From positions 1-60,071 of the forward strand of contig DAOWIZ010000080.1 of assembly GCA_030640585.1 (NCBI GenBank): a DNA stretch of 60,071 nucleotides, written 5' to 3'. Positions within the stretch are counted from its first letter, which is position 1, and every line of letters starts with the position of its first letter. This document shows positions 6,467-46,564 of the stretch, one piece after another. Below the pieces are notes generated by a model, which made no database searches, was not told the origin of the DNA, and saw nothing but the letters and a program-made list of their open reading frames with translations. The stretch comes from Thermoplasmata archaeon (GTDB lineage: Archaea; Thermoplasmatota; E2; DHVEG-1). The translations under genes were made by a program, and so were the position numbers.

Positions 6467-8491
6467 TTATCTTACTACGGCTACTGTGATAGTTGCATAG
6501 GCAAATCCAGCTGAATCGGCAATGATAATGTTTTCTAAACATTTTACTTTTACTTGTCCTGATGAGATTGATTGATCTGGCATAATGTTTAAGAATATAG
6601 ATTCACTATTTTCTATTTTTATAAAGAATTCGTATTCATCCGATATACTAAAGATTTCTTTTAATTCTTGATAAGGTACTTCTGATAGTTCATATATTTT
6701 ATCCATACTAAGCAGAGCAGTATAATCATTTTCGGTGACACTATTTTGTCTCGAGAGGCTAATTTCTTCTTCATTTCCTGTTAATATATATTTTCGTACA
6801 TTATGTGCAATAACAATGTTGTCTCCAAAGACAACCAAATACGTGTGATATTTTTCTATTTCAAGATTATAGGATGGTGCTTTTTCATATATCTTTTCTA
6901 ATGAAGTGACTTTTCCTTTGAATAAATGGTCTCCGAGCTTAAGATTTCCTGCTTGAATCCATTCATTGTTTATATATAGAAGGTGATCAGGAGTAACCTT
7001 AAGATGGTTGTTTACAATTAAATAGTAATCTGATATCATCTGATTAGGAGTATCATGAAAGATTTGAATTACTTTGTCTTTAGTTAAAGTGCCGGTTTTT
7101 TCATTGTATGATTTAACAATGTCTCCAATTTGGATTTCCTCAATATGTTTTTGTGTTGCATCGGCCATTAATATTTTTGTCCCAGCTAGGAAACACTTTC
7201 CAGTTTCTCCTTCTTCGCCTCCGCTAACAAGGATAGTATGATGAGATGACCAAGGGCTTTCTTTTCCATCACACATAGAATGAGGATCACTGTCATTATG
7301 ACCATTACCTGCAGGGTCATCTGCTGCTTTAACAGTTATGTAATAAGTACCTGCTGTAGACCAAGAATAATTTATATAACAGTATTCTCCTTTCCCTGAG
7401 TAGGGTCCTACCCAATCACTTTGATTACCATCATCAAAATCCCATTTAAAATAAATATCATCACCATCTGGATCTTCGGCATGTGTTCGAAACATTTCTA
7501 CTTTACCTACTTTTGTAGTATCAGGTCCATCTGGCGAATTTGGTTGGTTAGGAGGATCATTTGGAGGCATAACACGTATCATAACCTGTAAAGGTTCTGA
7601 CCAACTACTTTCTTTACCATCACTTAGATCGCCATTACCATCAGGATCATCTTTTGCTTTAACAGTTATGCTATAAATGCCGGGAGAACACCATGAATGA
7701 TACATCGTACAAATCCCTGAACTAGGATATGGTCCCACCCAATCACTTTGAGTACCATCATCCCAATCCCATTTAAAATAAATATCATTTCCTTCAAGAT
7801 CTTCTGTAAATGTCCAAAAACAATAGGATTTATTAGCATGTGGTTGTACTTCCACAAAGCACCACTTAGGTACCTCAGGATCATGTGGAGCAGAATTTGA
7901 CGATGTCGTGAATGTCCATGTTTCTGATGTGATATTACATGTTGAATCATCAACTGTTACATACCAACGGTATTCCTCTCCTTCTGATAATCCAGACCAA
8001 GTAACATTAGCTCTTGTACCACTCTCAACATCAACATCTACATCAATAAACTCTCCATCTCCAGAAGTGACATCATAGAAAGAAACCTTCATTACATCAC
8101 CTTTATCTATATCACTAACATAAACACTTAAATCCACACTGTTAGGTGGATTTGGATTTAAAGGTACAGAATCACCATCACCCGGACTTGGATTTTGTAC
8201 AGTTGGACATGAATTAAGAATAGTAATATCACTTATTGATCCAGTTGGAGGAACGGGTACCGGTGTTTCAGGATCTATTGCAAGACCAACTTGAGAGTCT
8301 GAAGTTAACAATAAACTCATTATCTCTGTAGCCTTTGCATTTGCATCGGCATGAATCTGTGCAGATCCTTGTTCTGCTGGAGGAGCCATCGAAGCAGCCA
8401 CAACAACGAGAGTTGTCATTAATGCTATGCTTGCTATAGAAAACTCAAGCGGCGAAGCAACCCCATAATTAGTTTTATATAATTTCCTCAT
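6467..8491 (-). CDS. class III signal-peptide (pilin-like) surface protein with Fn3-like and two PKD-like modules and an embedded Hint domain
   Basis: N-terminus MRKLYKTNYG|VASPLEFSIASIALMTTLVVVAA. Two repeats of IYFKWD(W/F)DDG.QSDWVGPY...Y.ITVKA.DDP.GNG. Hint blocks CFLAGTKI / TPDH / VIAHN. Confidence 0.8.
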   Translation of the reverse strand: MRKLYKTNYGVASPLEFSIASIALMTTLVVVAASMAPPAEQGSAQIHADANAKATEIMSLLLTSDSQVGLAIDPETPVPVPPTGSISDITILNSCPTVQNPSPGDGDSVPLNPNPPNSVDLSVYVSDIDKGDVMKVSFYDVTSGDGEFIDVDVDVESGTRANVTWSGLSEGEEYRWYVTVDDSTCNITSETWTFTTSSNSAPHDPEVPKWCFVEVQPHANKSYCFWTFTEDLEGNDIYFKWDWDDGTQSDWVGPYPSSGICTMYHSWCSPGIYSITVKAKDDPDGNGDLSDGKESSWSEPLQVMIRVMPPNDPPNQPNSPDGPDTTKVGKVEMFRTHAEDPDGDDIYFKWDFDDGNQSDWVGPYSGKGEYCYINYSWSTAGTYYITVKAADDPAGNGHNDSDPHSMCDGKESPWSSHHTILVSGGEEGETGKCFLAGTKILMADATQKHIEEIQIGDIVKSYNEKTGTLTKDKVIQIFHDTPNQMISDYYLIVNNHLKVTPDHLLYINNEWIQAGNLKLGDHLFKGKVTSLEKIYEKAPSYNLEIEKYHTYLVVFGDNIVIAHNVRKYILTGNEEEISLSRQNSVTENDYTALLSMDKIYELSEVPYQELKEIFSISDEYEFFIKIENSESIFLNIMPDQSISSGQVKVKCLENIIIADSAGFAYATITVAVVR
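6800..7195 (-). other. Hint (intein-like) domain, residues C433-N564 of the 674-aa protein
   Basis: Block A is CFLAGTKILMAD, block B is KVTPDH, block F is YNLEIEKYHTYLV and block G is NIVIAHN. The +1 residue is Val, which is not a nucleophile. Confidence 0.75.
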
Positions 8492-8632: not shown

Positions 8633-9145
8633 TTAGTAAATATCATAAGTTATCACCTCAGAAATACATTCATTATCATCACTTAATGTTAAAAAACAAA
8701 TTATTCCATCTGCTTCGTCATTAGTATATGTTAGTCCTATATATTTAGCATCAAAGTAATTACCATTTAATGATTCGGCAAAAAAAACAAATATATCTCT
8801 AGTATCATTAAAATAAGTAAGAACTAGAGGTACAAGAGTTTTTTCTTCGTAATTTAATTTACCGCTAAGTCTATCTCTAAGGGCTATTCCAAATTCCTTT
8901 CGGATATTATCGTAATCAGATTTTATAAAAGATGTTTTATCCAGAGAAACATCAACATTAACTAAACTTACTGTTATAGATGCAAGTGTAATAATTGCTA
9001 CGCTCAAGAAAATACCAGTTAGTAATAATAGTTGCGCATCATCCTTTTTATGTTTTCTACATCTTTTATTTGAATGAATTCTATTTTTGCTGTTATCTTT
9101 GAAGGAAGTTTTTTTCTTACCTAATGTAATTATATCATGTTTCAT
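8633..9145 (-). CDS. small class III signal-peptide (pilin-like) protein with a long basic leader
   Basis: ..KHKKDDA|QLLLLTGIFLSVAIITLASITVSLV, followed by a ~110-aa soluble domain. Lies 4 nt downstream of the preceding gene. Confidence 0.6.
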   Translation of the reverse strand: MKHDIITLGKKKTSFKDNSKNRIHSNKRCRKHKKDDAQLLLLTGIFLSVAIITLASITVSLVNVDVSLDKTSFIKSDYDNIRKEFGIALRDRLSGKLNYEEKTLVPLVLTYFNDTRDIFVFFAESLNGNYFDAKYIGLTYTNDEADGIICFLTLSDDNECISEVITYDIY

Positions 9146-9149
9146 AATA

Positions 9150-9629
9150 TCACCTTAAAGTAAAATACAGGGTGAGGGCTACAATATAAATAAGACCATC
9201 AATTACAACAATTCTGGAGACGCGTGCTTCTTTTCCGATTTCAACTGGTGCCTTATACAATATTTCTGTGATTGGATGATCAGGATCATCTATTTGCCAG
9301 TCGGGATGTTGATTTAGCATCGATATGTTAATCCAGGAGATCCCATACAAAGTTCCTTTGGGAACACTTCTATTAATATAATCTGTAAATTCATCGATGT
9401 ATTCTGCGGTGGCATACCTAGCCAATAAACTAGGATATTGTTCAAGATTATCTGGTACTCCTTCAAGACTTGTTAGAATTCCAATACCCAAAATTTCAAG
9501 TTCATTTTCCTCAATTGTTGTTATACTAGGTGAAATATCAAAAGTTCTGACAAAAAATAGTGCCATAAGTAACATACCAGCTACAATAATGACTTCAAAG
9601 ACATGTATCTGAGCATAATTATTCATCAT
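9150..9629 (-). CDS. small class III signal-peptide (pilin-like) protein
   Basis: MMNNYA|QIHVFEVIIVAGMLLMALFFV. ATGA overlap with the upstream gene. Confidence 0.6.
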   Translation of the reverse strand: MMNNYAQIHVFEVIIVAGMLLMALFFVRTFDISPSITTIEENELEILGIGILTSLEGVPDNLEQYPSLLARYATAEYIDEFTDYINRSVPKGTLYGISWINISMLNQHPDWQIDDPDHPITEILYKAPVEIGKEARVSRIVVIDGLIYIVALTLYFTLR

Positions 9630-11536
9630 TTACCTCCTGAAACATTAATAATTCTTTCACCACGTTGAATAGTTAAATCACCTACAGCCCAATAGTAATC
9701 AGGACCTGGAGTGTCCGTATCATGAAATGTGATCTGTAACTTCCCTCCATCCGCGGCATCTACTGATATGTCAGATATCAACATTTTTTTATAAGAATTC
9801 TCACAACGCGGGACAGGATAAGAATTACCATTTATTGTAATCGTCATATTTTCAACTAGGTTATCTGGATCACCTACGGTAAAGATAAGACTGCAGATAT
9901 CGTTTACTTCTAGACCTTTTGTTAATGTTAAATTTGTGATTGTGAACATAGTAGCAGAACCAGAACCTGTAGAATTGCAAACAAAGTCATAACCAACGCT
10001 TCCGGTATCACGTTCCACTGAGTTTACCTTGTTTGGATTTTCCCATTTGTAATCCCGAGAATGAGTTCCATATACATATGCAACTGGGATTGATTCCTCC
10101 TGACTAGTAACATCCTCGGATACCTTGGCTTCAAATTTGCGAACAAATATCCAATCGTAGTATGCAGTAGTACTATCTTCCGTTGTACAAAGACCGAAAT
10201 AACCATCTCCAATAGGAGCAGGTGCGTATAGGTAGCCGCCAACTGAATAGTTTTCATAAAAATAACGGCAAACTATAGTGTAACTTTCATTTATAATATA
10301 TGTAAGTCTATTCCATCCTTGATTAACAGGCAAATCAGATGAGTTTTTAACTGTAGAAGTATCATCTATTATCGAGAGATTTTTATTATATCCGCTGGTA
10401 AAGTTTCCTGATGCAAATAGATATCCATGATCATAAGGAGCTCCGCTGCTTCCATCGTTTCTTGCAAACATGCTTGCTTCTCTTATATCTCCAACTGTTT
10501 TTGCTTTGGTTTCTATAACACATGAGGATGAACCAACTTGTATTGTGGAGTTTATTGCAGATCCATTTGTTAAAACTAGTTCACCATCCTCAATATATAT
10601 CTCTTCATTAGAAGTATTATACGGGTACCACCTACCAGAATCCGGATATGTCCCAGATGTTGTAAAGTCATCAAAGAAATCAAACGTGGCACTTCCATTA
10701 CTCAAAGGTGATGCAGAAACTTTGCCATGATACATAAAAATAATAGTGTCCTCTGGATATGAAAGAGATGTAATATTCACCCATATTCTTGATGTGTGTG
10801 TATCCCTAGGATACCATCTTTCTATCCAGTAATTTAACTTAGTGCCAGAGTTATCAGTAAAATTTAAGTCGGATCCGTCACTATTAGCCGTTGAATAATC
10901 AAAGTTAGTATCATCTAATTGGATTAGAATCTGATAGTCTGATAAAGGTCCAACTGGATTTTTTATTATAATAGGAGTTCTATATTTCCATTCCTTAAGG
11001 CTATCAGGCCAATTGTTATTGTTTGATGAATTTGTTACTCTTGTATGTCCTGTATTCCCCGTTGAGGTATTAGTACCAAAATCAAATCTATATATGTAGT
11101 CGTAACTATTGCAAGAAATATTTATCGCACCGTTCCCTCCATATATTTTACCGGATATTTCTATCGATTGTTTATTTGTGACATTGTAAAGCGTACTTTT
11201 TTCATTGATATTTCCATTGGTTGATCTAACATATACTGCACTATTATCGATTTCTATATAGTAAGAAAAATGATCCGCTAACCTGAGGGGAATCTCTAAT
11301 ACTGTCGAATAATTTGCATTTGGGTACTGTTCTTTCAATACATAAACATTTATTATCGCGTTTGCCACTCGATTTGCAATATTTTTAGCATGTATCTCAG
11401 ATGCATCACTGGCTTTCTCCTCGATAAGAGCATTAGTTGTAATTATAGTAACAGCGATTATAACCGTTGTTAAAGAAAGTGTTAACATATAACCTATTAA
11501 ATGAGAGACCCCGGAATTATTTTTTAAAATCCTCAT
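9626..11536 (-). CDS. class III signal-peptide protein with DUF2341-like and LamG/ConA-like lectin-type region
   Basis: MRILKNNSG|VSHLIGYMLTLSLTTVIIAV. The central WKYRTPIIIKNP..LSDYQILIQLD..NFDYS.ANSDGSDLNF.D..G.KLNYWIE pattern resembles DUF2341 (family recalled, not searched). ATGA overlaps at both ends. Confidence 0.75.
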   Translation of the reverse strand: MRILKNNSGVSHLIGYMLTLSLTTVIIAVTIITTNALIEEKASDASEIHAKNIANRVANAIINVYVLKEQYPNANYSTVLEIPLRLADHFSYYIEIDNSAVYVRSTNGNINEKSTLYNVTNKQSIEISGKIYGGNGAINISCNSYDYIYRFDFGTNTSTGNTGHTRVTNSSNNNNWPDSLKEWKYRTPIIIKNPVGPLSDYQILIQLDDTNFDYSTANSDGSDLNFTDNSGTKLNYWIERWYPRDTHTSRIWVNITSLSYPEDTIIFMYHGKVSASPLSNGSATFDFFDDFTTSGTYPDSGRWYPYNTSNEEIYIEDGELVLTNGSAINSTIQVGSSSCVIETKAKTVGDIREASMFARNDGSSGAPYDHGYLFASGNFTSGYNKNLSIIDDTSTVKNSSDLPVNQGWNRLTYIINESYTIVCRYFYENYSVGGYLYAPAPIGDGYFGLCTTEDSTTAYYDWIFVRKFEAKVSEDVTSQEESIPVAYVYGTHSRDYKWENPNKVNSVERDTGSVGYDFVCNSTGSGSATMFTITNLTLTKGLEVNDICSLIFTVGDPDNLVENMTITINGNSYPVPRCENSYKKMLISDISVDAADGGKLQITFHDTDTPGPDYYWAVGDLTIQRGERIINVSGGK

Positions 11537-13413
11537 CTTACCCCCCCTATGTTTACTTCGATGAACGAACTATCGAGAACAAAAGACGTTCCATCTGTTT
11601 GATAATATATTGTGTTTGGTCTATCTTGTATTTTTTCAAAATCATATGACATAGTGAAATAATTTATCCATAAATCTTTGACTTCTTTTAATGAATCATA
11701 TATCTGCATTTTGAAATTGTATATGTTGGAAAATTTTGGTTCTCGACTATAGCTATTTTTCATATTGAGTCCAAGTTCATATATTCTAGCACCACCAGCA
11801 CATGCTACATAGGATTCACCTATCTGTATTATCCTAAATCCAATAGCACCATTGCCCTCATCTTCCTCAAAAAAAGATGGACCGCTTTTTATACTATTAC
11901 TTATAGGTCCAAATAATAATATGCCGCCGTTTTCAAAAATTATTTTTTGAGTGCCCATATCATGACGAGACTCATAGGTTATAGAACCAAGATCAAACAC
12001 CCAAATCCTCCCAAAAGGCACATATCCCCTCAAACCACCAGCGGGATAAATATTGTTAAATAAATCTATTCTTAATGTACCGCTTAGTGGTCTGTCATTC
12101 TGAGTGGTTATTGTCCATGTATGAGGAGGACCAACATTATCCGTAACATCAGGAGATTCAGCATGATATGAATCTTCTGGCAAGTAATCTCCTGTTTGAA
12201 CATGTATTTCAGTTATATTATCTGGTTCGTATATAGTTTCATTCTTGTCTTTTGCTTGTAACGTTAATGTATATGTACCGGGTTTTGCATAAATATGCTT
12301 AAAACCATTATACCATGTATTGTTTGGTTGTAAGCCTGAATCGCTGATGCCACCATCTCCCCAAAAAATTCTATAACTAATGTCATCATTATTAGTAGGA
12401 TCCACTGCTTTTACTGAAATCGATTCGTTTACACCAGAATAAAAAGATGGTAATGGGGTAATAAACTCCGGAGTGTTTGGCGTAGTATCATCTATATATT
12501 TTATTCTATATCCCAAATCGTAACCAGGGACTGGATACCAGGATGACCCACCATCCGTAGTAGTATTTGCACCACAAGAACTATAATAAGAACTATAGGG
12601 AGAATCCTTGTCAAGATACCATTTGTAATAATTATAACTCCCATTTGCGAAGCTACCTCCGGAAGTATTTATACCAATATGATAAATTTTAGTAATATCT
12701 AATTGGATGTTGTGTGAACTGAAATCACATTCAATCCACTCATAAGAAGACGATATATCCTCCGATGGCACTATGACAGATGCCAATAGGTTATTTGGGA
12801 TCCCTCCGGTGTATATAGAAACATTTAGATCACTAGAAACTACACCTCTTTCCTCAACATATATCTTAACCTTATCTAATTCCCAGTTATCATTTGGTGG
12901 AGTAAATGATTGTGCACACCAAGTATTTTGATATATCTTTTTATATGGTGTTGTTTCGAAAGCCAATTGCTCTGTTGTTTCTCCAGGATCAAGCCAATAA
13001 ATTTGTACTCCGTCTATAAGACCTAAAGTTTCAGCTTCTATCGTAAATGTATTAGTTTCATTGTCCAAACCTGACACATTGAAATCAAAATCTTTGGGAG
13101 TGTAAGGTGAATCAGGGAATGTATACATTAGTATGAGTTTACTACCTTGAGAATCAATATTTAGAGAGGCTTCCTTATTAGTACTAACAACATTGCTAAC
13201 TCCCTTAGCTCCATATCCATCAATGATTAAACCCCGCATAGTGTTGTACATGATGTCAAATCCACCAAAAACAGTCTGAGATTCACCCATTATCTCTTTT
13301 TCTTCAATATAAGGAAGACCCCAAAAAAGAACCGCAGTTACAACCCCCAATACAATAGAAAGAGTCATTAATGTTGAAACAACCTCACTGACTGCATTAT
13401 TACTTATTTTCAT
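11533..13413 (-). CDS. class III signal-peptide (Pilin_N-like) protein with a PKD-like insert
   Basis: MKISNNA|VSEVVSTLMTLSIVLGVVTAVLFWG. Has one PKD-like module (ISYRIFWGDGG...YAKPGTYTLTLQAKD). Its N- and C-terminal segments are paralogous to those of the 1360-aa protein. Confidence 0.75.
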   Translation of the reverse strand: MKISNNAVSEVVSTLMTLSIVLGVVTAVLFWGLPYIEEKEIMGESQTVFGGFDIMYNTMRGLIIDGYGAKGVSNVVSTNKEASLNIDSQGSKLILMYTFPDSPYTPKDFDFNVSGLDNETNTFTIEAETLGLIDGVQIYWLDPGETTEQLAFETTPYKKIYQNTWCAQSFTPPNDNWELDKVKIYVEERGVVSSDLNVSIYTGGIPNNLLASVIVPSEDISSSYEWIECDFSSHNIQLDITKIYHIGINTSGGSFANGSYNYYKWYLDKDSPYSSYYSSCGANTTTDGGSSWYPVPGYDLGYRIKYIDDTTPNTPEFITPLPSFYSGVNESISVKAVDPTNNDDISYRIFWGDGGISDSGLQPNNTWYNGFKHIYAKPGTYTLTLQAKDKNETIYEPDNITEIHVQTGDYLPEDSYHAESPDVTDNVGPPHTWTITTQNDRPLSGTLRIDLFNNIYPAGGLRGYVPFGRIWVFDLGSITYESRHDMGTQKIIFENGGILLFGPISNSIKSGPSFFEEDEGNGAIGFRIIQIGESYVACAGGARIYELGLNMKNSYSREPKFSNIYNFKMQIYDSLKEVKDLWINYFTMSYDFEKIQDRPNTIYYQTDGTSFVLDSSFIEVNIGGVR

Positions 13414-13671: not shown

Positions 13672-16600
13672 TTATTCTAAATTGATTTTAATTAAAGCCG
13701 TTTTAAAAACCAACTGTTTTCCGTTATAACCGTCATAAGCTAGGAAACCATCAGATTGAGACTTAAACTTATAAGTCCTTGTTAAATACTCATGCCAAGA
13801 ACTACTATGTTCACCTGAATATTTGATTTTTAAACCATATGCATTGCAGTTCTGTTCATCTAAAAATCCTTGTTCTCTGGTAAAAGTATTCAGATTTTTG
13901 AAAGAAATCTCATAAGTTTCAGCACCACTACCGCTTTTTGAAACAGTGGTATCTTCTCTGATCATAGTTACGGTAAATCCAAGAATGTTTCCGTTCTCAA
14001 AGATATTATTTGAATAGCTACATCTATCTACACTGGCATCACCTGATAAAACTGACAATACACCACCATTCTGAAGAATTGTCTTATGTTCTCCATCTGC
14101 AACAATACGTCCAGTCTTAAACCCATAAATTTTACCAAATGGAACTTTACCTGCAGCAGGATCATTTGTAGATGGATAATTGTCGTTAAATAGATAGATG
14201 CAAAACGTACCAGTTAAATCCTTCTTAGTAGGGACGATGGGCATACTGATAGGATTGCCACCAAATGATTCGGAGGATATATTATCTGGTGGAACAATAT
14301 ACTGATCAGACAGTCTTATCGCCATTGGATCAGACCAATCACTCGTATCCTCATTTACATCTTCGGCTTTAACTCTAATTTCGTAAACACCAGGAGATGT
14401 CCAATAATGCGAGGGATATGGGCCACCCCATTCCTCAATGCTCGTATTAGCAGGATAGCTGCTACCAGTCTTATAATACTCGCTGCCATCTCCCCAGTCA
14501 AACCAATAATAAATATTATCTCCCTCTAAATCAAAAGATATGACACTAAAGATATACTCAATATTAGTACCATCTACACCACTGTAATACCTCGCAGGAT
14601 CGTCAACTCCAACAGCTGTAAAACCAGTAGGAATAGCAGGAGCACCGCCTGCGCTTACAAAAGCACAAACCTCATCATCATAAAAACTAGTTTGACCAAT
14701 TGTATCAGTTACACGAAGCATACACGTATGAGTATTATAATCACCATAATCATGGCTAACAGTATCGGATGAACCAGAATCATCAGCACTAAAAACCCCG
14801 GTATAATCAAAATCCCAGGCAAACTCATTTATACCATTATCATCAGATGAGCCACTAGCATCAAAATCAATTGTAGCATTCGGGCCACCATTATCAGCAT
14901 CAGTCCAATCGAAAAGAGCAGTTGGAGGATTATCTCCCGGTCCAACAGCCTGAACAATATGTGAGGTATAACCATATGCACCATCGTTGTCCCTTACACG
15001 AAGCCAACAGTTATGAGTATTATAATCAGTATAATTATGGATAACATTGACACCATAAGCATCAGGAGTAAAGAATGTCATTCCATCCCGATCAAAGTCC
15101 CATGAATAATTTACTATCCAACCACTACCTGAATCAAATGAACAACTAGCATCAAAACTTATTTCAGCACCCGGATCACCACCATCAATATCATTCCAAT
15201 TGAAACAAGCCGTTGGAGGATTAGCAGTTGAAGCAGTAGTACTAGCATAATCTGTACTCCATCGCCCATAATACTCCCCGGTACTTACTAATTCTTCTTT
15301 AGCATAGGTCCATGCGCGTATGTAATAGGTTATACCAGGGGTTACAGAGTTTGTACATGAGGCTCCCGTATCATTATCGTACCAGACCAACGCAGATGAA
15401 TCATCTGGATCCGAAGGATAACTACCAACCTTAGCTAATACCTTTGTATACACAACAGCACCAGTAATGTCACATGGTGCTTTATCCCATGTAACACAAA
15501 TCGTATTCGGGCCAGAGCCACCTTCATTTTTAGCTAAGTTAGAAGGTGGAGGTGGCACTGTAAAGAAAGGCTCTGGTCCACCATATTCAGTAAAAAACGA
15601 ACTTTCAGGAGTAACTGCTTTGGTACTCGCAACATATAAATCCCCTGAATTAAGATCTGCAACCTCTGCATCAAATGGACCCGCAGTGACACGATTCCCA
15701 GCAGGCTCATAGGCAGGTCCACATGAGGGAAAACAATTTGTATAACCAACAGAACACGCAGTTCCTTCACTACGCGTAGCGTCTAAAGCAAAAAGTAACC
15801 CGCTATCATCCAAATAACCGCTCAATGTTGCCGTAGTTGTTCCAACGTTTTCCTCGGGCGGCGATGTTGTAGTGACCTCAGGTTTCTCAACATAATGGAC
15901 TATTAGTTTCGGTTTATTACTACTGGCTCTACGTGAATAAAAATCGAAATGGTCAGTTTTATCGCCAGATTCATGGCCGGAAATCAGCCAACCATAATTC
16001 GTTCTTGTACCATCCCACATATCTCTTGTACTTTGTGTCATACCCCTACCACCATATAAAGGAGAACTATCACCCCAAGTCACCCAGCCAAAACTACTGG
16101 GTAATGTCGCTTCTGCAATTGTGTCAACATTAGACTCAGGTGGTGGTCGCAGTCGCATATGCACTCGGTGGGCACCTAATAAGGGCCACTCTTGGAGGCC
16201 GGATGCATCCCAGTATCTCCAGCTGGTATCACCGGATCCGGCCTCCAAGCCCTTCCAGTCATAATCATTAACTTCATTAGCAAAAACTGCATCACCGGCA
16301 GGATTATCTTCTAAATATTGGTAATAATATAGCTTCAATTCTGCTTTCTCAATAAATGCATCAGAAGGAATTTGATATAACGAAAATTTTAGTAATGCTC
16401 GATTCTTAGTACCAATGGGACCAGGATCAACTCTTAGCCACTCTTTCGTACAGCCATCTGTGTTAGTAGGGAAAAATCTCGAAATATAACAGTCTCGATG
16501 TGAATAAAAAGTTCTCCCTGATTCTGGTTCTTCTTCCTCTAGTGTTGTAAAATACCATGCCGGACCAATAGTAGAAAGATCATGATTATCCCTCGCAACT

Positions 16601-17754
16601 ATCTTCCAAAAATATGCTGTTTCATAGTTAAGTTCGGGTAGATTATACGGTATTGGTGTATAGTCATAGTCAAATGGTCCAATCGTATCATAATATGGTG
16701 GATTTAATGGATTTTGAGTACCAAAGTATATATCATATGTAACAGTATCACCAGAATCTGGATCACCTCCATCCCAACTAAGGTCATGATGGACATCGAC
16801 ATCGGTTTCGCCATCCTCTGGATCTGGATTACTGGGAACAAACGGAGAATGATCTATATCACCAAGCGGTTTAAGCTTAAACGGGGCACAAGACATCTTA
16901 CTAACACCAACAGAACCGGAAACAACAACAGCTTCAACATCTGACTTTGCTAAAAAACCATCAGCGAAATAGGCATTACCTGATTCCAAAATTAAATCAA
17001 AACTACGTTCCTTTGAAAAATTTTTTTCTATTGAAAACAACGAGATCTCTTCACTAGCTACATCAAATAAAACATCACCCACACTTAGCATTCCAGCTTC
17101 AACCCACATGTTATCAACAAATAACCTGTGATTAGGAGTAACTCTTAATTCATTATTAATAACTAGATAATAATCACTCATACGATCCGCACTATAAGAC
17201 AACAGTGCCTTTACATAAGCATCAACAAACTCCTTAGAAACTTCATCATATGACTTAACAACATCCCCTGCTCTGATGTCCTCAATGTTCTTCTGGGATC
17301 CATCTGCCATATCTATTTTTGTACCCGCAAGAAAACATGTATCATAAAGCCAATAAACAGTGGCACTATGGACATCTGGACCAGAAATAGAAAACTGATT
17401 ATCATCCAGAGTTACATTAAAATCCCAATCTTTATCATTAGAGTTAGAGTACAAGATTATTACCCCTTCATCATCGGAATCATCAATCCCAATAGAACCA
17501 CTGTTAATAGTAATCTCACTAGTGAAACTAGAACCATTCCCATCTCCAACTAAATTTCCAAGAACCTTATCAGCGATTTTAAATTGATTAACAATGGATT
17601 TATTCTCATTTTTATTTTCCTCGGTTTTAATGTACTGTGGTCCCCACACAAGAATTGTACCAGTTGCTGAGAAAAAAATCATCATTACAAGGAGTAAAGA
17701 TAGTACAGATGAGACAGCTTCATTATTTATTCTAAAATTTTTTATTTTTTTCAT
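13672..17754 (-). CDS. giant (1360 aa) class III signal-peptide protein: pilin-like core split by a Hint domain, Fn3-like modules and three PKD-like modules
   Basis: MKKIKNFRINNEA|VSSVLSLLLVMMIFFSATGTILVWG. CFLAGTKIDMADG Hint block at residue 140. PKD-like YSWDFDRDG, FAWDFDYTG and YYWFDWGDG modules. GGAGGGG SD upstream. Confidence 0.8.
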   Translation of the reverse strand: MKKIKNFRINNEAVSSVLSLLLVMMIFFSATGTILVWGPQYIKTEENKNENKSIVNQFKIADKVLGNLVGDGNGSSFTSEITINSGSIGIDDSDDEGVIILYSNSNDKDWDFNVTLDDNQFSISGPDVHSATVYWLYDTCFLAGTKIDMADGSQKNIEDIRAGDVVKSYDEVSKEFVDAYVKALLSYSADRMSDYYLVINNELRVTPNHRLFVDNMWVEAGMLSVGDVLFDVASEEISLFSIEKNFSKERSFDLILESGNAYFADGFLAKSDVEAVVVSGSVGVSKMSCAPFKLKPLGDIDHSPFVPSNPDPEDGETDVDVHHDLSWDGGDPDSGDTVTYDIYFGTQNPLNPPYYDTIGPFDYDYTPIPYNLPELNYETAYFWKIVARDNHDLSTIGPAWYFTTLEEEEPESGRTFYSHRDCYISRFFPTNTDGCTKEWLRVDPGPIGTKNRALLKFSLYQIPSDAFIEKAELKLYYYQYLEDNPAGDAVFANEVNDYDWKGLEAGSGDTSWRYWDASGLQEWPLLGAHRVHMRLRPPPESNVDTIAEATLPSSFGWVTWGDSSPLYGGRGMTQSTRDMWDGTRTNYGWLISGHESGDKTDHFDFYSRRASSNKPKLIVHYVEKPEVTTTSPPEENVGTTTATLSGYLDDSGLLFALDATRSEGTACSVGYTNCFPSCGPAYEPAGNRVTAGPFDAEVADLNSGDLYVASTKAVTPESSFFTEYGGPEPFFTVPPPPSNLAKNEGGSGPNTICVTWDKAPCDITGAVVYTKVLAKVGSYPSDPDDSSALVWYDNDTGASCTNSVTPGITYYIRAWTYAKEELVSTGEYYGRWSTDYASTTASTANPPTACFNWNDIDGGDPGAEISFDASCSFDSGSGWIVNYSWDFDRDGMTFFTPDAYGVNVIHNYTDYNTHNCWLRVRDNDGAYGYTSHIVQAVGPGDNPPTALFDWTDADNGGPNATIDFDASGSSDDNGINEFAWDFDYTGVFSADDSGSSDTVSHDYGDYNTHTCMLRVTDTIGQTSFYDDEVCAFVSAGGAPAIPTGFTAVGVDDPARYYSGVDGTNIEYIFSVISFDLEGDNIYYWFDWGDGSEYYKTGSSYPANTSIEEWGGPYPSHYWTSPGVYEIRVKAEDVNEDTSDWSDPMAIRLSDQYIVPPDNISSESFGGNPISMPIVPTKKDLTGTFCIYLFNDNYPSTNDPAAGKVPFGKIYGFKTGRIVADGEHKTILQNGGVLSVLSGDASVDRCSYSNNIFENGNILGFTVTMIREDTTVSKSGSGAETYEISFKNLNTFTREQGFLDEQNCNAYGLKIKYSGEHSSSWHEYLTRTYKFKSQSDGFLAYDGYNGKQLVFKTALIKINLE
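16942..17337 (-). other. Hint domain lacking the C-terminal His-Asn (Hedgehog / B-type BIL-like), residues C140 to about S271 of the 1360-aa protein
   Basis: Block A is CFLAGTKIDMADG and block B is RVTPNH. The terminal region is SFDLILESGNAYFADGFLAKS, with no HN. Confidence 0.7.
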
Positions 17755-24449: not shown

Positions 24450-24620
24450 ACTACCACACCACCAAAATCATTGATTTTGGAAGTGGCTTCCTAATTCAAT
24501 GACCGTACTCGCCAAAACTGTTTTCAGTCTTGGCGGAGGTACAATCTCCAAAGGCGTAAATTCGGGCAATCCCTGCCCTATTATTTGTTTTAGACCCCTC
24601 TCCAATATGTTCAGAGAGGC
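24446..24620 (-). ncRNA. candidate omega-RNA (reRNA) scaffold overlapping the tnpB 3' end and the right end
   Basis: Position is analogous to known TnpB omega-RNAs. This segment is the part conserved at nucleotide level in the ORF-less copy at 18.1 kb. A terminal hairpin is visible. Extent is not determined. Confidence 0.4.
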
Positions 24621-25646
24621 ATTATAATCCCTGTCAAGAGATTTACCATACTTATATATCTGTGACGTGTAACTTGGATCTACTTTGACCATTATCTTAC
24701 CAGCCCATTCTGCCTTGTAAGATAATATATCAAAGAATTTTCTCCAAGATACATCAAGTGTATTGCGTCTCATATGACGCTTTATTTGTTTAGATTTCTC
24801 TTCATTGCCAATGGATTTTAACATACCTGTTATGTTCAAATCTTCAACGCTGATGAAGTCAAACGTATCGACATAATGCTTTGCAACCTTATGGCAGAAA
24901 TCAGCACGCTGATTTGCCACCTGCTCATGCAGTCTGGCAACACGAACAATCTGCTTCTTTCTATTGTTTGACTCTTTTTTAGTCCTTGACAATCTTTTCT
25001 GCCTGCATCTTAACCGTTTCAAAGATCTCTTCAGATACTTCGGATTCTCAATGATTTTACCTGTTGTGTCAGTCAGGAACTCTGTGATGCCCATATCCAT
25101 ACCAACAATCTTTTTGATAGGTTGTTTCTGAACTGATTTGACTTCTTCAACAATTATATTTGCAAACCATCTACCAGATCTGTAACGCTTGATGATAACT
25201 TGTTTGATGTTTTCATCGAAATCCCTATGCATACGCATAGGTATATCTCCAACTTTGGAGATATGCAACCTGTTGCACTGTGTGTTCGTTGGAATAATTT
25301 TGAACCCGCTCTGATTGTAATGAATGGTTTTGAAACCAGCACTGCTTTTGAAACGCAGTCTACCAACTTTTCTACCTTTCTTCTTAGACTCAGATAATGC
25401 CTTCAAGTTGGAAAACAAACGATAAACCTCATGTTGCAATGCTTTAGAATAAACACCCTTCAAATGAGGATATTGCTCTTTCAACTTTGGCAGAGAGTTC
25501 TGCAAAGTATATCTGTCTGGTTTATCTTGTTTCTGCAATTGTTCAAGCATTACATTGTAGACAAATTTGCATTGTCTCATTGTCCAAAGCAGTTTTTGCT
25601 CCTGTTCTTTGTTTGGATACAAACGATACTTGTATGTTTTCAGCAT
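24468..25646 (-). CDS. tnpB: TnpB (IS605 OrfB-type RNA-guided nuclease homolog), zinc-finger-less variant
   Basis: N-terminus is MLKTYKYRLYPNKEQEQKL. RuvC motifs are GMDMGI, FISVEDL and DRDYNASLNI. Only 8 residues (IYKYGKSL) lie between TSQ and DRD, where the CxxC..CxxC finger normally sits. Confidence 0.9.
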   Translation of the reverse strand: MLKTYKYRLYPNKEQEQKLLWTMRQCKFVYNVMLEQLQKQDKPDRYTLQNSLPKLKEQYPHLKGVYSKALQHEVYRLFSNLKALSESKKKGRKVGRLRFKSSAGFKTIHYNQSGFKIIPTNTQCNRLHISKVGDIPMRMHRDFDENIKQVIIKRYRSGRWFANIIVEEVKSVQKQPIKKIVGMDMGITEFLTDTTGKIIENPKYLKRSLKRLRCRQKRLSRTKKESNNRKKQIVRVARLHEQVANQRADFCHKVAKHYVDTFDFISVEDLNITGMLKSIGNEEKSKQIKRHMRRNTLDVSWRKFFDILSYKAEWAGKIMVKVDPSYTSQIYKYGKSLDRDYNASLNILERGLKQIIGQGLPEFTPLEIVPPPRLKTVLASTVIELGSHFQNQ

Positions 25647-42178: not shown

Positions 42179-45100
42179 TTATTTTCGTCTGCGTCTGAGT
42201 AGTATGAATGCTACTCCAAGTGCTGCTATCAGTGTTAGTAGTTCGAAACCAGGTGCACCAGATACAATAGTTACTGACTCAGGATATGTTGCAACATCAA
42301 ATGTTCCAAATGTTGCTGTTATTGTATATGTACCTGTTTCTGTAAATGTTACTTGACCGTTTACAGTAGTACCTGTCGTAGCAGTACCTTCGGTTGGAGT
42401 GAATGTTACTGTTGCCCCGGTAATCAAAGCACCTGTATCTTCATTGGACACCGTTACAGTTACAGGAGACACAAATTTATCATCTTTATCTTTGTTTTCG
42501 CTGGTTACAGTTATTGTTAGTCCAGGCGTGTTAATTACACGTATTGACACTGTGTTCGGCTCTGGAGCATATCCTATCTTTGATGCAGTTATTGTCAAGT
42601 CACGGTCACTTGTAACCTGTGGAGCTGTAAATGTTGCTTGTCCGTTTGCATCTGTCTGCAATGTTTCTCCGTTAAATAGTACATCTGCACCTATGGCAGG
42701 TTCAGTGGTTCCTTCTTTCATGGCTGTAACTGTAAAGGTTCCGCCTTCTTCCACTGTTGTCACATCTATACTAAGGTCTAGCACCCAAGATGTAACTTTG
42801 ACTACTGTACCAACTAGCGTTTTACCACTTTCACCTACATCTATGCTAATGTTACCAGTTGTTGCTGGTGAAATAGAGAACGATACTCTACCATCTACAT
42901 CTGAAGTACCGTTTCTGTCAAATCCGCAACCATGTAGACGTACAAATACATCTGTTAGTGTTGTACCACGTCCTGTCACAGTCGTATATACCTTTGTTGT
43001 TCGTCCAAGTGGTATATAACATATACCATCAGATGCCTGTGGAGTAGGCGCAACGGATGGTATTTCCACCTTAATACGATCTTTACATTTTGCCCATTGA
43101 CCATCACTACCATCTGCTTGCAGTGGTTTAAACCATAATGTAAGGTATTGTGTTGCATTAGCACCCAGTTCACAAGCTGTTATTTGATCTACCTTTACAA
43201 CACCATTTACAATATTATCGCTGCTGATTTCAATCGACGTACTTCCAGTATCAGAACCATAAGTCACGCTACTAAAGTTACAGTACACCCAAGTCTTGTT
43301 GAATGTCCCTGCATCAGTCATATTGTCTATCCTTAGCGCACCGTTTGTAGGTTCACCATCATATGTCATAGTAAATATTGCGCTTATGTTGTTGTCTTCT
43401 CCTTTCCAGATCAACGGTGCTTTGTCACATGTAGCCTCTACTGGTTTTATCACAAGAGTTGCATTATATCCGTTACTGTTATGTGTATAGTTATAAGCAT
43501 GTACTGTATATGTACCTGCTTCAATACCCCAAACAGTATCAAACTCAAGTGAGTAAGTGACAGGCACGTGACTGTGTCCAGTCAGATAGGTATCATAAAT
43601 GTTGTTAAGTAAGTTATTTGATTCACTTGTACCTGTTACATCATCACCATTTGAGTCTATCAGTTCTATAACAAACTTATCTCTTTCTGCAGCAAGAATG
43701 TTTGGAACGTCTGTAGAGTTACCAGCAAATGTAGTATTGATGTAAAAGTTATCATACTCATATCCTGCCATAAGTGTCTCATGAGATATCTCTACTTCAA
43801 GATCACTTACTGGCTCCATCTCAACAAGTGCATAACCATCACGGTGACCTGCACCATCCACGAACACGGTCAAATTTCTTGGAGCCCTGATATTGGAAAA
43901 AAGAACTGTTGTTTGATTTGTTGTTTGCTGTGTCCTATTAAATAGTATTGAACATGTTGAACCAGATGCATCAATTTTGTCAACCCATGCATTTGTAACC
44001 TCATCATCCATTGGGTCACATGGACTTCTACTTGATACAACTGTTGATGTGTAATCATCGACATAGAAGAGGTATACTGTAGTTCCCCTCATATCCGAGC
44101 CGTCATCTGCATATTTAGCGGTTACAGTTAACGTCTGGTCCTGTTGGTCAATGTCAAACTTATTTGGGCTTACTGTCACTACGGTACCATTTTGGTCATA
44201 GTTAGCTCCTCCAATGGAGATTGTTTTTGTTATAGTAGTGTTATATGCAGTTATTTTAATGGTTATCGTTCCACCGCCACTGCTCATCGTTGGTATAATT
44301 GGAATACTCCATACACCAGTTGCTGCACCATTGAAACCACATTTAGCTGTATCTAGGCCATAACCAGGGAAACTACTTAGTTTACCAGTAAATAATGAAT
44401 CACCAGAAATGGTAATATTCTCTGCACAATCTCTAATCTTTGAACATTTACCACTATGATATCCTGCAGTTGTATCACCAAAGTAATTACCACCCTTATC
44501 ATATAGATAAAATTCTACATCTAGTGGCACACTGGCTACAGGTGGAACATATGGTATTACTCCATCGTTGTTACTCTTTTCATATCCCCAGAGCTCGGTA
44601 CCAACTGTTCCATCATCATCTATCCATTTAAATTGGAGAGACGGGGCCTTCTTAACTTTGAATTTAACAGTGGTATTATATTCTTCAGTATAGGCTTTAT
44701 GCTCACCATTTGCAATTCTATCTCCATTATAGTCTACATATATTTTAACTTTCCATGTACCATTAACACCTAAAGCATTTGTAGTTGCTAAATCGGCACT
44801 GTTGTTTCTACCCCACCTTGTCATATTAATATGTATGTATCCGTCCCTGTACTTGTCCTTATATACAACGATACAACCAGCGGCATCATCAGCACCTATA
44901 ACATCTTGTGTCCCACTAACACCTGTTCCTTTAGCAAAATCAGTGATATTAACGCCAGCAGTATTTATTACCGAGACCTTGACATCAGATGCGTCAAAAG
45001 CTGGTCCGCCACTTCTCTTAAGTAGAGTTATATTTAATTCGCCAGTGAAACCATAGTACATAGTGTAATTACCAGTTGGTAAATTAGTATATGGCGTTGC

Positions 45101-46564
45101 AGTTGTTACTTGTATTGGTTGAACAGTTACATTATATTCAGGTGGATCCCATGGACCACAAGTACTCCAGTTATATCTTGTTGCAGTTGCTAACCATGTG
45201 GCAGATTGATTCCCATCTGCCTCAGCACCATATGTTGTGTTATAATGTGTATAACCAAGTGTACTACTTTCCATATTAGTCTCTTGGTAATATTGTACAC
45301 CAATATACTCATCTACAGTACTAAAGTCTGATATATCTCTAGCCCTGTCAGCATCATAGTAACCATAGGCTGTATAGTTTCCTACACTCAAAAATCCAAA
45401 TTCTCCAGGCCAATATCCGCCATCATAGCTGTTATTTCTATAAAACTTCTCACAAGTCCAAGAAGCATCGCATACCTGATTTTTGCTGTTAATTGACGTT
45501 CCATTACCATCATGCCTTATATCAACAACTGGTTTTTTAGGGGCAGTATAACTAACTGTAGTACCATCTGCTTCTGTTATTGACATTGACAGAAGGGATT
45601 TACTTGCGTTATAAACAAATGTATCTGGGAGGTTATTCATCTTATAGGTTGTAGATGTATTAACCCAGAGCCAAGCTGCAACAGTTGAATTATATGTCTC
45701 GATGGTTCTAAAGTTAGCATCAGACCACTTTACATTACCGTCATCTATAACCCATAGGCCTGCAGAGTCAAATGTTACATCATCAAACTCAGCACTAGCA
45801 AACGAAGTTGAAGTGTCGAATTGTTGTCCAGATACTCTCCTCCATACTAAGTTATAAGCTGAGTCAGCTAAGCTATCTGAACCGTTATAAATCGGTTGGT
45901 ATAAATAGTATGTAGCAGTTTTGCCATTCCAAGGTATATTTGCATTAAGATTTATATCATAAGTACTCCCAACCTCAAAATTAGTACTAGTGCTTGATAA
46001 AACTTGTCCACTATTTCTTGCAACCGCAAAGTTACCGCCTTGCCATTTATTAACACCAGGTGTTCCTGTTAAGGTGTTTCGAACAACAATATGGTAACTA
46101 GTTCCGTTTACAAATTGTACTACGCCAGCAACCGTAGTAGATCCTGTAATATTAACCCAGTAATCGCCATCTGATAATCTCGTTGTATCATAATCCCAAT
46201 GAGATTCGTTACCTGAATTTTCAGAAAGATTTCCACCATATGGAGTTCTGCTCTGGTCACCCCAACCAATACCTACGTCAGTACCTAGTATAGTACAGTT
46301 ATATGTTATTGGATTAAGGCCACCATTACAATCTACATCACTAGTCCATCCAAACCGGACCCAGCCATTTATATATAAACCATTCAGGTTCGCATAACTC
46401 GTTGTATTTCCAGAGGTTTGATTAATCCATCCGCTAGTTATACTTCCACTCATACCATCTCCAGCAGTTGCACCTATATTTACTATTCCAAAAACAAATA
46501 TTGCTGATGCTACCATTAGCATAGCAACTAAAATTCCACCTATTTTTCTATAATTTCCTTTCAT
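42179..46564 (-). CDS. giant surface (S-layer-like) glycoprotein candidate with signal peptide and PGF-CTERM anchor signal
   Basis: N-terminus MKGNYRKIGGILVAMLMVASAIFVFG. C-terminus ..GAPGFELLTLIAALGVAFILLRRRRK. Very many N-x-S/T sequons. Ig/CarboxypepD-like repeats near the C-terminus. Strong SD (AGGAGGAAAGGAG). Confidence 0.85.
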   Translation of the reverse strand: MKGNYRKIGGILVAMLMVASAIFVFGIVNIGATAGDGMSGSITSGWINQTSGNTTSYANLNGLYINGWVRFGWTSDVDCNGGLNPITYNCTILGTDVGIGWGDQSRTPYGGNLSENSGNESHWDYDTTRLSDGDYWVNITGSTTVAGVVQFVNGTSYHIVVRNTLTGTPGVNKWQGGNFAVARNSGQVLSSTSTNFEVGSTYDINLNANIPWNGKTATYYLYQPIYNGSDSLADSAYNLVWRRVSGQQFDTSTSFASAEFDDVTFDSAGLWVIDDGNVKWSDANFRTIETYNSTVAAWLWVNTSTTYKMNNLPDTFVYNASKSLLSMSITEADGTTVSYTAPKKPVVDIRHDGNGTSINSKNQVCDASWTCEKFYRNNSYDGGYWPGEFGFLSVGNYTAYGYYDADRARDISDFSTVDEYIGVQYYQETNMESSTLGYTHYNTTYGAEADGNQSATWLATATRYNWSTCGPWDPPEYNVTVQPIQVTTATPYTNLPTGNYTMYYGFTGELNITLLKRSGGPAFDASDVKVSVINTAGVNITDFAKGTGVSGTQDVIGADDAAGCIVVYKDKYRDGYIHINMTRWGRNNSADLATTNALGVNGTWKVKIYVDYNGDRIANGEHKAYTEEYNTTVKFKVKKAPSLQFKWIDDDGTVGTELWGYEKSNNDGVIPYVPPVASVPLDVEFYLYDKGGNYFGDTTAGYHSGKCSKIRDCAENITISGDSLFTGKLSSFPGYGLDTAKCGFNGAATGVWSIPIIPTMSSGGGTITIKITAYNTTITKTISIGGANYDQNGTVVTVSPNKFDIDQQDQTLTVTAKYADDGSDMRGTTVYLFYVDDYTSTVVSSRSPCDPMDDEVTNAWVDKIDASGSTCSILFNRTQQTTNQTTVLFSNIRAPRNLTVFVDGAGHRDGYALVEMEPVSDLEVEISHETLMAGYEYDNFYINTTFAGNSTDVPNILAAERDKFVIELIDSNGDDVTGTSESNNLLNNIYDTYLTGHSHVPVTYSLEFDTVWGIEAGTYTVHAYNYTHNSNGYNATLVIKPVEATCDKAPLIWKGEDNNISAIFTMTYDGEPTNGALRIDNMTDAGTFNKTWVYCNFSSVTYGSDTGSTSIEISSDNIVNGVVKVDQITACELGANATQYLTLWFKPLQADGSDGQWAKCKDRIKVEIPSVAPTPQASDGICYIPLGRTTKVYTTVTGRGTTLTDVFVRLHGCGFDRNGTSDVDGRVSFSISPATTGNISIDVGESGKTLVGTVVKVTSWVLDLSIDVTTVEEGGTFTVTAMKEGTTEPAIGADVLFNGETLQTDANGQATFTAPQVTSDRDLTITASKIGYAPEPNTVSIRVINTPGLTITVTSENKDKDDKFVSPVTVTVSNEDTGALITGATVTFTPTEGTATTGTTVNGQVTFTETGTYTITATFGTFDVATYPESVTIVSGAPGFELLTLIAALGVAFILLRRRRK

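Follow-up and report, generated by a model that had tools for sequence, protein, structure and literature searches.

A predicted Hint domain within a pilin-like surface protein of Thermoplasmatota, a candidate for autoprocessing at its N-terminal junction only

Hint domains are known as selfish inteins, as processing modules of animal Hedgehog proteins and as BIL or pretoxin domains of bacterial secreted proteins. Here we describe a Hint domain encoded by a Thermoplasmata archaeon, in contig DAOWIZ010000080.1 of assembly GCA_030640585.1. The whole stretch of 60,071 nucleotides (60 kb) that was analysed is called the window below; coordinates count from its first letter, and all features for which window coordinates are given lie on the minus strand. 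The domain is part of a predicted protein of 1360 amino acids (aa), whose open reading frame (ORF; 13672-17754) encodes, in this order, a signal-like N-terminus, the N-terminal half of a scaffold, the Hint domain, a short tail, adhesin-like cargo and the C-terminal half of the scaffold. We propose, with a probability of about 60%, that this is a domesticated Hint of the BIL/PT-HINT lineage, which forms a thioester at the Thr139|Cys140 junction, where the chain is broken or transferred, and which performs no C-terminal cleavage; both the catalysis and the fate of the fragments are what we infer. Its host protein appears to be a pilin-like scaffold at the cell surface, belonging to a Tad-like type IV filament system of Thermoplasmatota.

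Identity of the Hint domain and its catalytic residues

Residues 140-271 (16942..17337) are, by their sequence, a Hint domain. It extends from the codon of Cys140 (17335-17337) to that of Ser271 (16942-16944) and reads CFLAGTKIDMADGSQKNIEDI...RVTPNH...SFDLILESGNAYFADGFLAKS, with CFLAGTKI at its start and GFLAKS at its end, followed by DVEAVVV. The original prediction, made from the letters of the window, had placed a Hint domain directly after the N-terminal domain, and its limits agree exactly with those found here. The Pfam profile PT-HINT (PF07591) matches residues 150-269 with 30.1 bits, above its gathering cut-off of 27.7 (E 6.5e-7). Over the same stretch, matches to five other Hint families (Hint, Vint, Hom_end_hint, Hint_2 and Intein_splicing) stay below the respective cut-offs; Intein_splicing (PF14890) reaches 20.7 bits against 35.8, and Hint_2 (PF13403), which we take to stand for B-type BILs, 22.7 bits against 28.4. 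The Hedgehog profile (PF01079) also stays below its cut-off, with 26.3 bits against 29.7, and is aligned over positions 9-91 of its 213 only. The NCBIfam intein profiles (TIGR01445) gave no match to the 1360-aa protein.

Sequences of solved structures lead in the same direction. The top matches in the PDB are BIL2 of Tetrahymena BUBL1 (6y75/6tmm, E 1e-6), 8w20_A and the BIL domain of C. thermocellum (2lwy), and the classical inteins present there match the Hint far more weakly than the BIL domains do. The resemblance to BIL2, at 24-26% identity, is one at the level of the fold family. Evidence on the fold itself comes from the AF2 model of a homologue, P0057 (890 aa, His-Asn type), whose junction, YWLNDT|CFLAGT, agrees with that of the 1360-aa protein (YWLxDT|CFLAGT in both) and which has about 42% identity to it over residues 7-264. 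In this model the Hint (residues 144-280) and both scaffold halves are predicted confidently and the cargo is not. Foldseek aligned the modelled Hint with BIL2 at E 1e-8 (target TM 0.72-0.77) and with the C. thermocellum BIL at TM 0.85, and ranked the DnaB, RecA and gp41-1 mini-inteins (TM 0.67-0.78) below the BILs. One relative has been automatically annotated as 'Hint domain-containing protein'. By descent, these profile, sequence and model matches assign the domain to a PT-HINT or A-type-BIL-like group, and neither to Hedgehog nor to B-type BILs. As PF01079 and PF13403 are both below their cut-offs, 'Hedgehog-style' can be retained as a term for the expected mode of action and not for the family; the original prediction, which compared the domain to Hedgehog and B-type BILs, is borne out in the expected chemistry and not in family membership.

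Conservation of single residues was read from an alignment of 59 N-proximal Hints of relatives. The first cysteine (Cys1) and the threonine and histidine of block B are invariant in all 59; the block-F column holds Asp, or Asn in some, and the residue preceding Cys1 is mostly Thr. In the 1360-aa protein these positions correspond to Thr139/Cys140 (17335..17340), where the N-S acyl shift and the scission of the chain are predicted, to the block-B motif T206-P-N-H209 (17128..17139), whose Thr and His are the ones invariant in relatives, in a further alignment (A1) as well, and to Asp253 of block F (SFDL; 16996..16998). The C-terminal end is different. Hints of most relatives end with ...VLVHN, after which nearly any residue may stand (A, G, P, D, T, S, N, I, Q or E), whereas those of the 1360-aa protein and its clade end with G-F-[LM]-[AV]-[KR]-S and continue with D. 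Profile-profile alignment (hhalign) of this clade with the His-Asn clade puts Lys270 in the column of His, Ser271 in that of Asn (16942..16947 for the two), Asp272 at the +1 position and Asn260 in place of the block-F His. Aligned to 6y75 by HMMER, the domain shows the same register. A different register suggested by MAFFT, pairing SDVEAVVVS with DDVDVLVHN and thus the His-Asn with Val278-Ser279, was dropped because both hhalign and the HMMER alignment to 6y75 favour Lys270-Ser271. The terminal Asn is absent under either register, and the lack of a terminal His-Asn, stated already from the bare sequence, agrees with the profile-profile columns. Throughout the window's clade the block-F His has given way to Asn or some other residue, and all [KR]-S-D members have Asp at +1, so that no Cys, Ser or Thr serves as +1 nucleophile.

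As the alignments read, three residues of Asn cyclisation are replaced together and all residues of the N-S acyl shift are retained. The pattern is that of B-type domains in its motifs, with intact N-terminal intein motifs and the canonical C-terminal one missing. From the established chemistry of inteins and Hedgehog proteins, a domain of this kind would be expected to form the N-terminal thioester and to proceed to cleavage or transfer only; with Asn260, Lys270 and Ser271 in place of the Asn-cyclisation residues and Asp at +1, neither C-terminal cleavage nor splicing is predicted.

The same residues bear on the notion that the domain is, or descends by decay from, a selfish mini-intein, with splicing now or in the past. 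Weak matches to Intein_splicing and Hom_end_hint, below cut-offs, speak for it. Terminal Asn, a Cys, Ser or Thr at +1 and a homing endonuclease are all missing, however, the site is a variable domain junction and not a conserved active site, and the domain is found at the same place, under purifying selection, across a deep clade and paralogues. We consider this origin hardly credible for the present-day domain.

Directly downstream of the Hint lies a tail of ~30 aa (residues 272-300, 16855..16941; DVEAVVVSGSVGVSKMSCAPFKLKPLG), conserved and specific to the [KR]-S-D clade, with the clade consensus SD[VA]E.[IV][VI][VI]S...S[KR]MS[CS].....L.PLG. It includes an often-conserved Cys about 17 residues past the Hint.

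Position of the Hint in a DUF7289-type scaffold

The 1360-aa protein starts (residues 1-45, 17620..17754) with a short polar leader, MKKIKNFRINNEA, and a hydrophobic stretch, VSSVLSLLLVMMIFFSATGTILVWG. The layout of a class III signal, a charged leader, Gly or Ala at position -1 and a hydrophobic helix, is present here (...NNEA|VSSVLSLLLVMMIFF...), and leader and hydrophobic motif are common to about 60 relatives. We regard these residues as an archaeal class III (prepilin-like) signal with the start of a long N-terminal helix, which would be processed by the corresponding peptidase. Residues 46-139 (17338..17619), with phmmer matches in about 40 relatives, form the beta-rich N-terminal half of the scaffold, the last strand of which is TVYWLYDT. 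Beyond Hint and tail comes a variable cargo of ~880 aa (residues about 301-1150, 14305..16854) that contains a DNRLRE/CBM96-like domain, several PKD domains and a weak match to an Ig-like one. About 25 relatives have at their very end, as a conserved region, the C-terminal half of the scaffold (residues about 1170-1360, 13672..14247).

That the two halves belong together is indicated by several comparisons. A Hint-less paralogue of 626 aa is encoded in the same window (11533..13413); its residues 1-141 and 324-622 align with residues 7-136 and 1056-1359 of the 1360-aa protein at 30% identity, and both proteins share the IYWL strand (...IYWLDPGETT... in the paralogue). In phmmer comparisons the N-domain (1-139) and the C-domain (about 1170-1360) are conserved together, one at each extreme end of the about 25 relatives mentioned, regardless of what separates them. 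N-domains of relatives match the Pfam family DUF7289, as do 10 of 17 family members, with one of the 17 matching Pilin_N weakly, and a chimera of the N- and C-domains of one relative, P0099, matches DUF7289 positions 2-201 across the junction. A profile of such N+C chimeras found natural proteins of 347 and 351 aa (P0122 and P0123), aligned over 96% of the chimera with E 8e-46. In these the halves are contiguous, an IHWIYGE strand being joined to an LTGTVEIFIND strand through a loop of ~30 aa. The AF2 model of P0122 is a single, confidently predicted unit (pLDDT 84.6, pTM 0.80) with a long N-terminal helix followed by beta structure; the helix is predicted at residues 16-69 in P0122 and 12-65 in P0057. 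End co-conservation, the match of the P0099 chimera, the contiguous 347/351-aa homologues and the P0122 model together lead us to read Hint and cargo as an insertion in a loop of a DUF7289-type scaffold. Two earlier claims, that the strand before the Hint is a conserved YWL strand and that the passenger contains the C-terminal half of the fold, are supported by the paralogue alignment, and the second also by the end co-conservation and the contiguous homologues.

The placement of the Hint was surveyed in 79 complete scaffold proteins, a set biased by having been retrieved mostly with Hint-containing queries. The Hint is at the proximal junction only in 67 of them, at the distal junction only in two and internal only in six; three have no Hint, and one (P0194) consists of N-domain, Hint and C-domain with no cargo. 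Such cargo-less members of 508 aa are P0194, L003:8994-10520 and L006:4332-5858, the Hints of which end with His-Asn|Glu. They resemble an intein-style insertion in the scaffold loop, but have no +1 nucleophile. Their existence suggests that the selected function is a chain break or activation in this loop and not the release of cargo. In P0099 (1030 aa) the insertion site of the Hint is one strand closer to the N-terminus (behind ...FTVSGLDT), and the cargo is followed by the IYWL strand; the insertion point thus varies within the scaffold. Siting at the edge of a cargo with dN/dS of about 1, in a protein with a signal peptide, is BIL-like.

Since PT-HINT is the best Pfam family for the domain, and since Hints of polymorphic toxin systems act as releasing peptidases (PMC3482391), the downstream polypeptide might be freed as a diffusible effector or toxin, as in those systems. 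The layout of the protein makes this very improbable. The Hint is N-proximal and not directly ahead of a C-terminal toxin, the protein ends with the conserved second scaffold half instead of a variable toxin, the cargo is made of PKD, CBM96 and DNRLRE domains of the adhesin type, no immunity-like gene follows, and the Asn needed to free a downstream domain is missing.

Conservation of the clade and its genomic context

An exhaustive HMMER search of 1.84 billion cluster representatives, with residues 1-300 as the query, returned 5332 matches at E<=1e-3, 130 of them at E<=1e-30; architectures were counted in the best 150 of the 5332. The N-domain is directly followed by a Hint in 66 of these 150, as counted by motif pattern, and three more proteins missed by the pattern also have an adjacent Hint. 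His-Asn is the Hint end in 52 of the 66, [KR]-S-D in 10 and His-Ser or Gln-Ser in two, the remaining two being truncated. The 66 proteins come almost only from Thermoplasmatota, and every locus with N-domain and Hint in a collection of species-representative genomes is labelled Thermoplasmata, Thermoplasmatales or Thermoplasmatota. Hints at the equivalent YWL position, for which a survey of related archaea had been advised, do recur across Thermoplasmatota loci.

The [KR]-S-D end is kept in at least 10 clusters (at the 50% identity level) and in all members of the clade, which extends down to 28% overall identity. The Hint was the best-conserved region in 8 of 8 comparisons within the clade, with identities of 57-94% against 36-87% for the N-domain, 45-82% for the C-domain and 24-72% for the cargo. 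Comparison with the closest homologue (71% identity, locus L078; dS about 0.09) gave the lowest dN/dS for the Hint (0.28), followed by the N-domain (0.67), the cargo (1.05) and the C-domain (1.33); these values come from one pair with few substitutions in the 132 codons of the Hint and are indicative only. They suggest relaxed or diversifying selection on the presumably exposed parts, cargo and C-terminal scaffold half, with the Hint constrained. We take [KR]-S-D, on these alignments, to be a character of the clade under selection and not a sign of decay. The clade nests among His-Asn relatives that carry the CFLAGTK...VTPNH motifs, so the loss of Asn would be secondary and not due to B-type ancestry. 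Outside the [KR]-S-D clade, the terminal Asn has been lost independently in P0060 (Hint at residue 135, end VLVHS) and in P0202 / L013 (VLVQS).

Some Hint domains are inactive, and one could suppose that autoprocessing has been lost in this clade, where the Hint would persist as a structural spacer or as a module for binding, in a protein that stays a single chain. The loss of the C-terminal catalytic residues would fit such a role, as would the fact that the literature searched holds no cleavage observed for the family. The conservation just described makes it quite unlikely, in our view: no clade member, down to an overall identity of 28%, lacks Cys1, Thr, His or Asp, the constraint on the Hint exceeds that on either scaffold half, and a spacer has no need for an invariant Cys1 and TxxH.

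The gene of the 1360-aa protein is the first of six ORFs between 6467 and 17754, each with a hydrophobic stretch behind a short polar leader at its start. It is followed by those of the 626-aa paralogue already described, a 636-aa pilin-like protein (9626..11536; DUF7266 and DUF2341 by Pfam), two small pilin-like proteins of 159 aa (9150..9629) and 170 aa (8633..9145), and a 674-aa pilin-like protein (6467..8491) that carries PKD cargo and a distal Hint and ends in a conserved tail; the last four are syntenic in relatives. The 170-aa ORF has a very basic extension of ~40 aa before its hydrophobic segment, and as its homologues align only from about residue 30, translation may in fact begin further downstream. 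At least 10 Thermoplasmatota loci keep the gene order: scaffold with Hint (one or two copies), 626-like, 636-like, 159-like, 170-like, 674-like. Hints are thus found in the first and the last gene of a syntenic operon, the 674-like gene having at least one distal Hint.

In the window this second Hint covers residues 433-564 of the 674-aa ORF (6800..7195) and ends with AHN|V, being of the His-Asn type. It is 41% identical to the Hint of the 1360-aa protein (E 3e-38) and has the same CFLAGTKI start, in accordance with the proposed paralogy of the two. Their similarity had been put at about 70% identical codons near the N-terminus. Over the first 10-30 codons such a value is right for nucleotides (71-77%; amino acids 73-90%) but not for whole codons, only 37-50% of which are identical; the first 30 codons have 71% of nucleotides and 37% of codons in common, and the complete domains 59% of nucleotides. 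The view that these Hints are functional and not parasitic gains from the Hint being the best-conserved part of the protein, from its presence after the N-domain in 66 of the best 150 of 5332 matches and from the syntenic operon with two Hints.

Genes for filament assembly are found next to relatives of this operon. Two T2SSE ATPase and two T2SSF platform genes (Pfam; L011:3-5933) directly precede the orthologous operon in L011, the same gene pattern is present in L003, L005, L009, L012 and L022, and a T2SSF gene adjoins the closest homologue in L078. The operon context suggests that pilin-like subunits of a type IV filament system are encoded here, a conclusion that is indirect for the 1360-aa protein. 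One T2SSE ATPase of the relatives has an N-terminal zinc-ribbon (CPxCH...CPxC) and a C-terminal helix-hairpin-helix, an unusual addition to such an ATPase that suggests DNA binding.

Further Hint-bearing surface proteins were noticed in the survey. Related proteins with two to four Hints, several in tandem, are P0043, P0087 and P0134 and those of loci L014, L015, L020 and L036. The same Hint subfamily accompanies bacterial type IV pilin N-termini (FTLIELLVV, SLVEILVV, LTMIEVLVV) in L024 (a 719-aa protein) and in L037, an Omnitrophota locus with adjacent ORFs of 379 and 414 aa whose Hints begin at positions 161 and 201. Bacteria, too, therefore have Hints in pilin-like proteins.

The window, with a G+C content of 35%, is archaeal chromosomal DNA. 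Its other genes encode RNA polymerase subunits B, A' and A'', RPA-like proteins, an archaeal-type D-aminoacyl-tRNA deacylase and lipoate proteins. A 735-aa NosD/right-handed beta-helix protein with two PKD domains (53529-55736) is another probable surface protein. A 1461-aa ORF (42179-46564) has no Pfam match at E<=1e-4. Two IS605 OrfB/TnpB-like genes (OrfB_IS605, Cas12f1-like TNB) lie at 24468-25646 and 47522-48253, the latter being shorter (243 aa).

Predicted processing and relation to known systems

The proposed course of events would be as follows. After export of the 1360-aa protein and folding of the Hint, Cys140 would attack the carbonyl of Thr139, aided by Thr206 and His209 of block B and Asp253 of block F, to form a thioester. 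Resolution of the thioester by water or another nucleophile would break the chain between Thr139 and Cys140, and the Hint would remain as the new N-terminus of the cargo fragment. The likely product would consist of two chains, a helix-bearing N-terminal fragment (about 14 kDa after removal of the signal) and a fragment made of Hint, cargo and the C-terminal scaffold half. The two would probably be held together through the split scaffold, in an association like that of SEA or GAIN domains.

Several results weigh against this proposal, in addition to the single pair behind the dN/dS values. Experimental cleavage of any family member was not found in the literature searched. Neither the 1360-aa protein nor its own N+C chimera has a significant Pfam match to DUF7289 (PF23960) or Pilin_N (PF07790), so that the link to DUF7289 runs through the relatives. 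Packing of the N- and C-terminal halves is suggested by the pTM of a contiguous homologue of 25% identity and not by contacts. The scaffold model of P0122 gave nothing below E 0.01 in a Foldseek search of the PDB, and no solved pilin. No T2SSE or T2SSF gene was found in the 60-kb window by tblastn with the proteins of a relative. The term 'pilin-like' of the original prediction hence holds for the signal-like N-terminus and, through relatives, for DUF7289 and the T2SSE/T2SSF genes, but neither assembly genes of the window nor a match to a solved pilin back it. Finally, the strictness of [KR]-S-D and the conserved tail suggest some function at the C-terminal junction that the proposal leaves unaccounted for.

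This last point leads to a related possibility, in which the same thioester is used for ligation, the C-terminus of the N-terminal fragment being passed to a specific nucleophile rather than to water. The acceptor might be a Lys of a neighbouring subunit or of the C-terminal half (giving an isopeptide bond), or the hydroxyl of a lipid or glycan, and the [KR]-S-D junction with the 30-aa tail would position it. Hedgehog proteins attach cholesterol in this manner of chemistry, and the pattern of residues here, with those of C-cleavage all gone and those of the N-side all kept, is the Hedgehog one; strict [KR]-S-D and a conserved tail are not explained by simple hydrolysis. Furthermore, the closest solved relatives in both sequence and fold are the BUBL BIL2 domains, which transfer their N-flank onto Lys amines with no ATP (PMC8616854). 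On the other hand, that likeness is only one of fold family (24-26% identity), no acceptor has been identified, a domain like the sterol-recognition one is not detectable in a tail of only about 30 aa, and His-Asn relatives at the same site retain the full machinery of C-cleavage, which is a better fit to simple excision. We consider ligation unlikely on balance. Still somewhat more doubtful is its extension, that the Hint acts as a single-turnover ligase in a pilin-like subunit, covalently cross-linking or anchoring the N-terminal fragment with no ATP, in a step of the Hedgehog or BUBL type by which the tip complex of an archaeal type IV filament would be assembled or anchored.

Our preferred reading, a BIL/PT-HINT-lineage domain acting at its N-terminal junction, can be placed among known systems. 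Closest are the A-type BIL and PT-HINT domains. They provide the best-scoring profile (above its cut-off) and the solved structures closest in sequence and fold, they share the size of about 130 aa with no endonuclease, Cys1 with TxxH and a non-nucleophilic +1 residue, and they too are placed in variable regions of secreted or surface proteins. Unlike A-type BILs, the Hints of the window's clade have [KR]-Ser for the defining His-Asn and no block-F His, and their host is an archaeal DUF7289-type pilin-like scaffold with a class III signal, encoded in a type IV filament operon, rather than a bacterial adhesin, Rhs toxin or ubiquitin-like array. B-type BILs, for which N-terminal cleavage is expected (PMC7765530), are similar in their intact N-terminal motifs and the missing canonical C-terminal Asn, but Hint_2 is below its cut-off and the loss of Asn is secondary here.

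With the Hog/Hint domain of Hedgehog the protein would share, by analogy, the N-S acyl shift, a thioester resolved only at the N-terminal junction and the lack of Asn cyclisation, as well as a Hint that stays on the C-terminal fragment and a conserved segment after it. It differs in that PF01079 is below its cut-off, a tail of ~30 aa stands instead of a sterol-recognition region, and the N-terminal fragment is a helix domain anchored in membrane or filament and not a signalling ligand. The analogy to SEA and GAIN domains would lie in a self-made nick within a folded extracellular module and two chains that are possibly associated non-covalently; fold and chemistry are unrelated. To archaeal type IV pilin-like proteins (DUF7289/DUF7266), and bacterial minor pilins with large inserted domains, the 1360-aa protein is related by its leader with hydrophobic helix, its multi-gene operon and the adjacency of T2SSE/T2SSF in relatives. 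A difference is that its scaffold has no solved structural relative. Likewise, the literature searched holds no description of Hint domains in archaeal pilin-like or DUF7289 proteins, nor of autoprocessing Hints inside archaeal type IV pilin-like proteins or bacterial minor pilins.

To the uses of Hint domains listed at the outset, these results add a deep and conserved archaeal one, at the junction between pilin-like scaffold and adhesin cargo in a pilus-like system of Thermoplasmatota. Within it, one clade appears to have reached the logic of Hedgehog independently, with the chemistry of the N-terminal side kept and that of the C-terminal side removed. If cleavage or transfer proves true, it would present a new maturation step of archaeal surface filaments, and a compact natural Hint of about 130 aa that cleaves at its N-terminal side only would be potentially useful for protein engineering.

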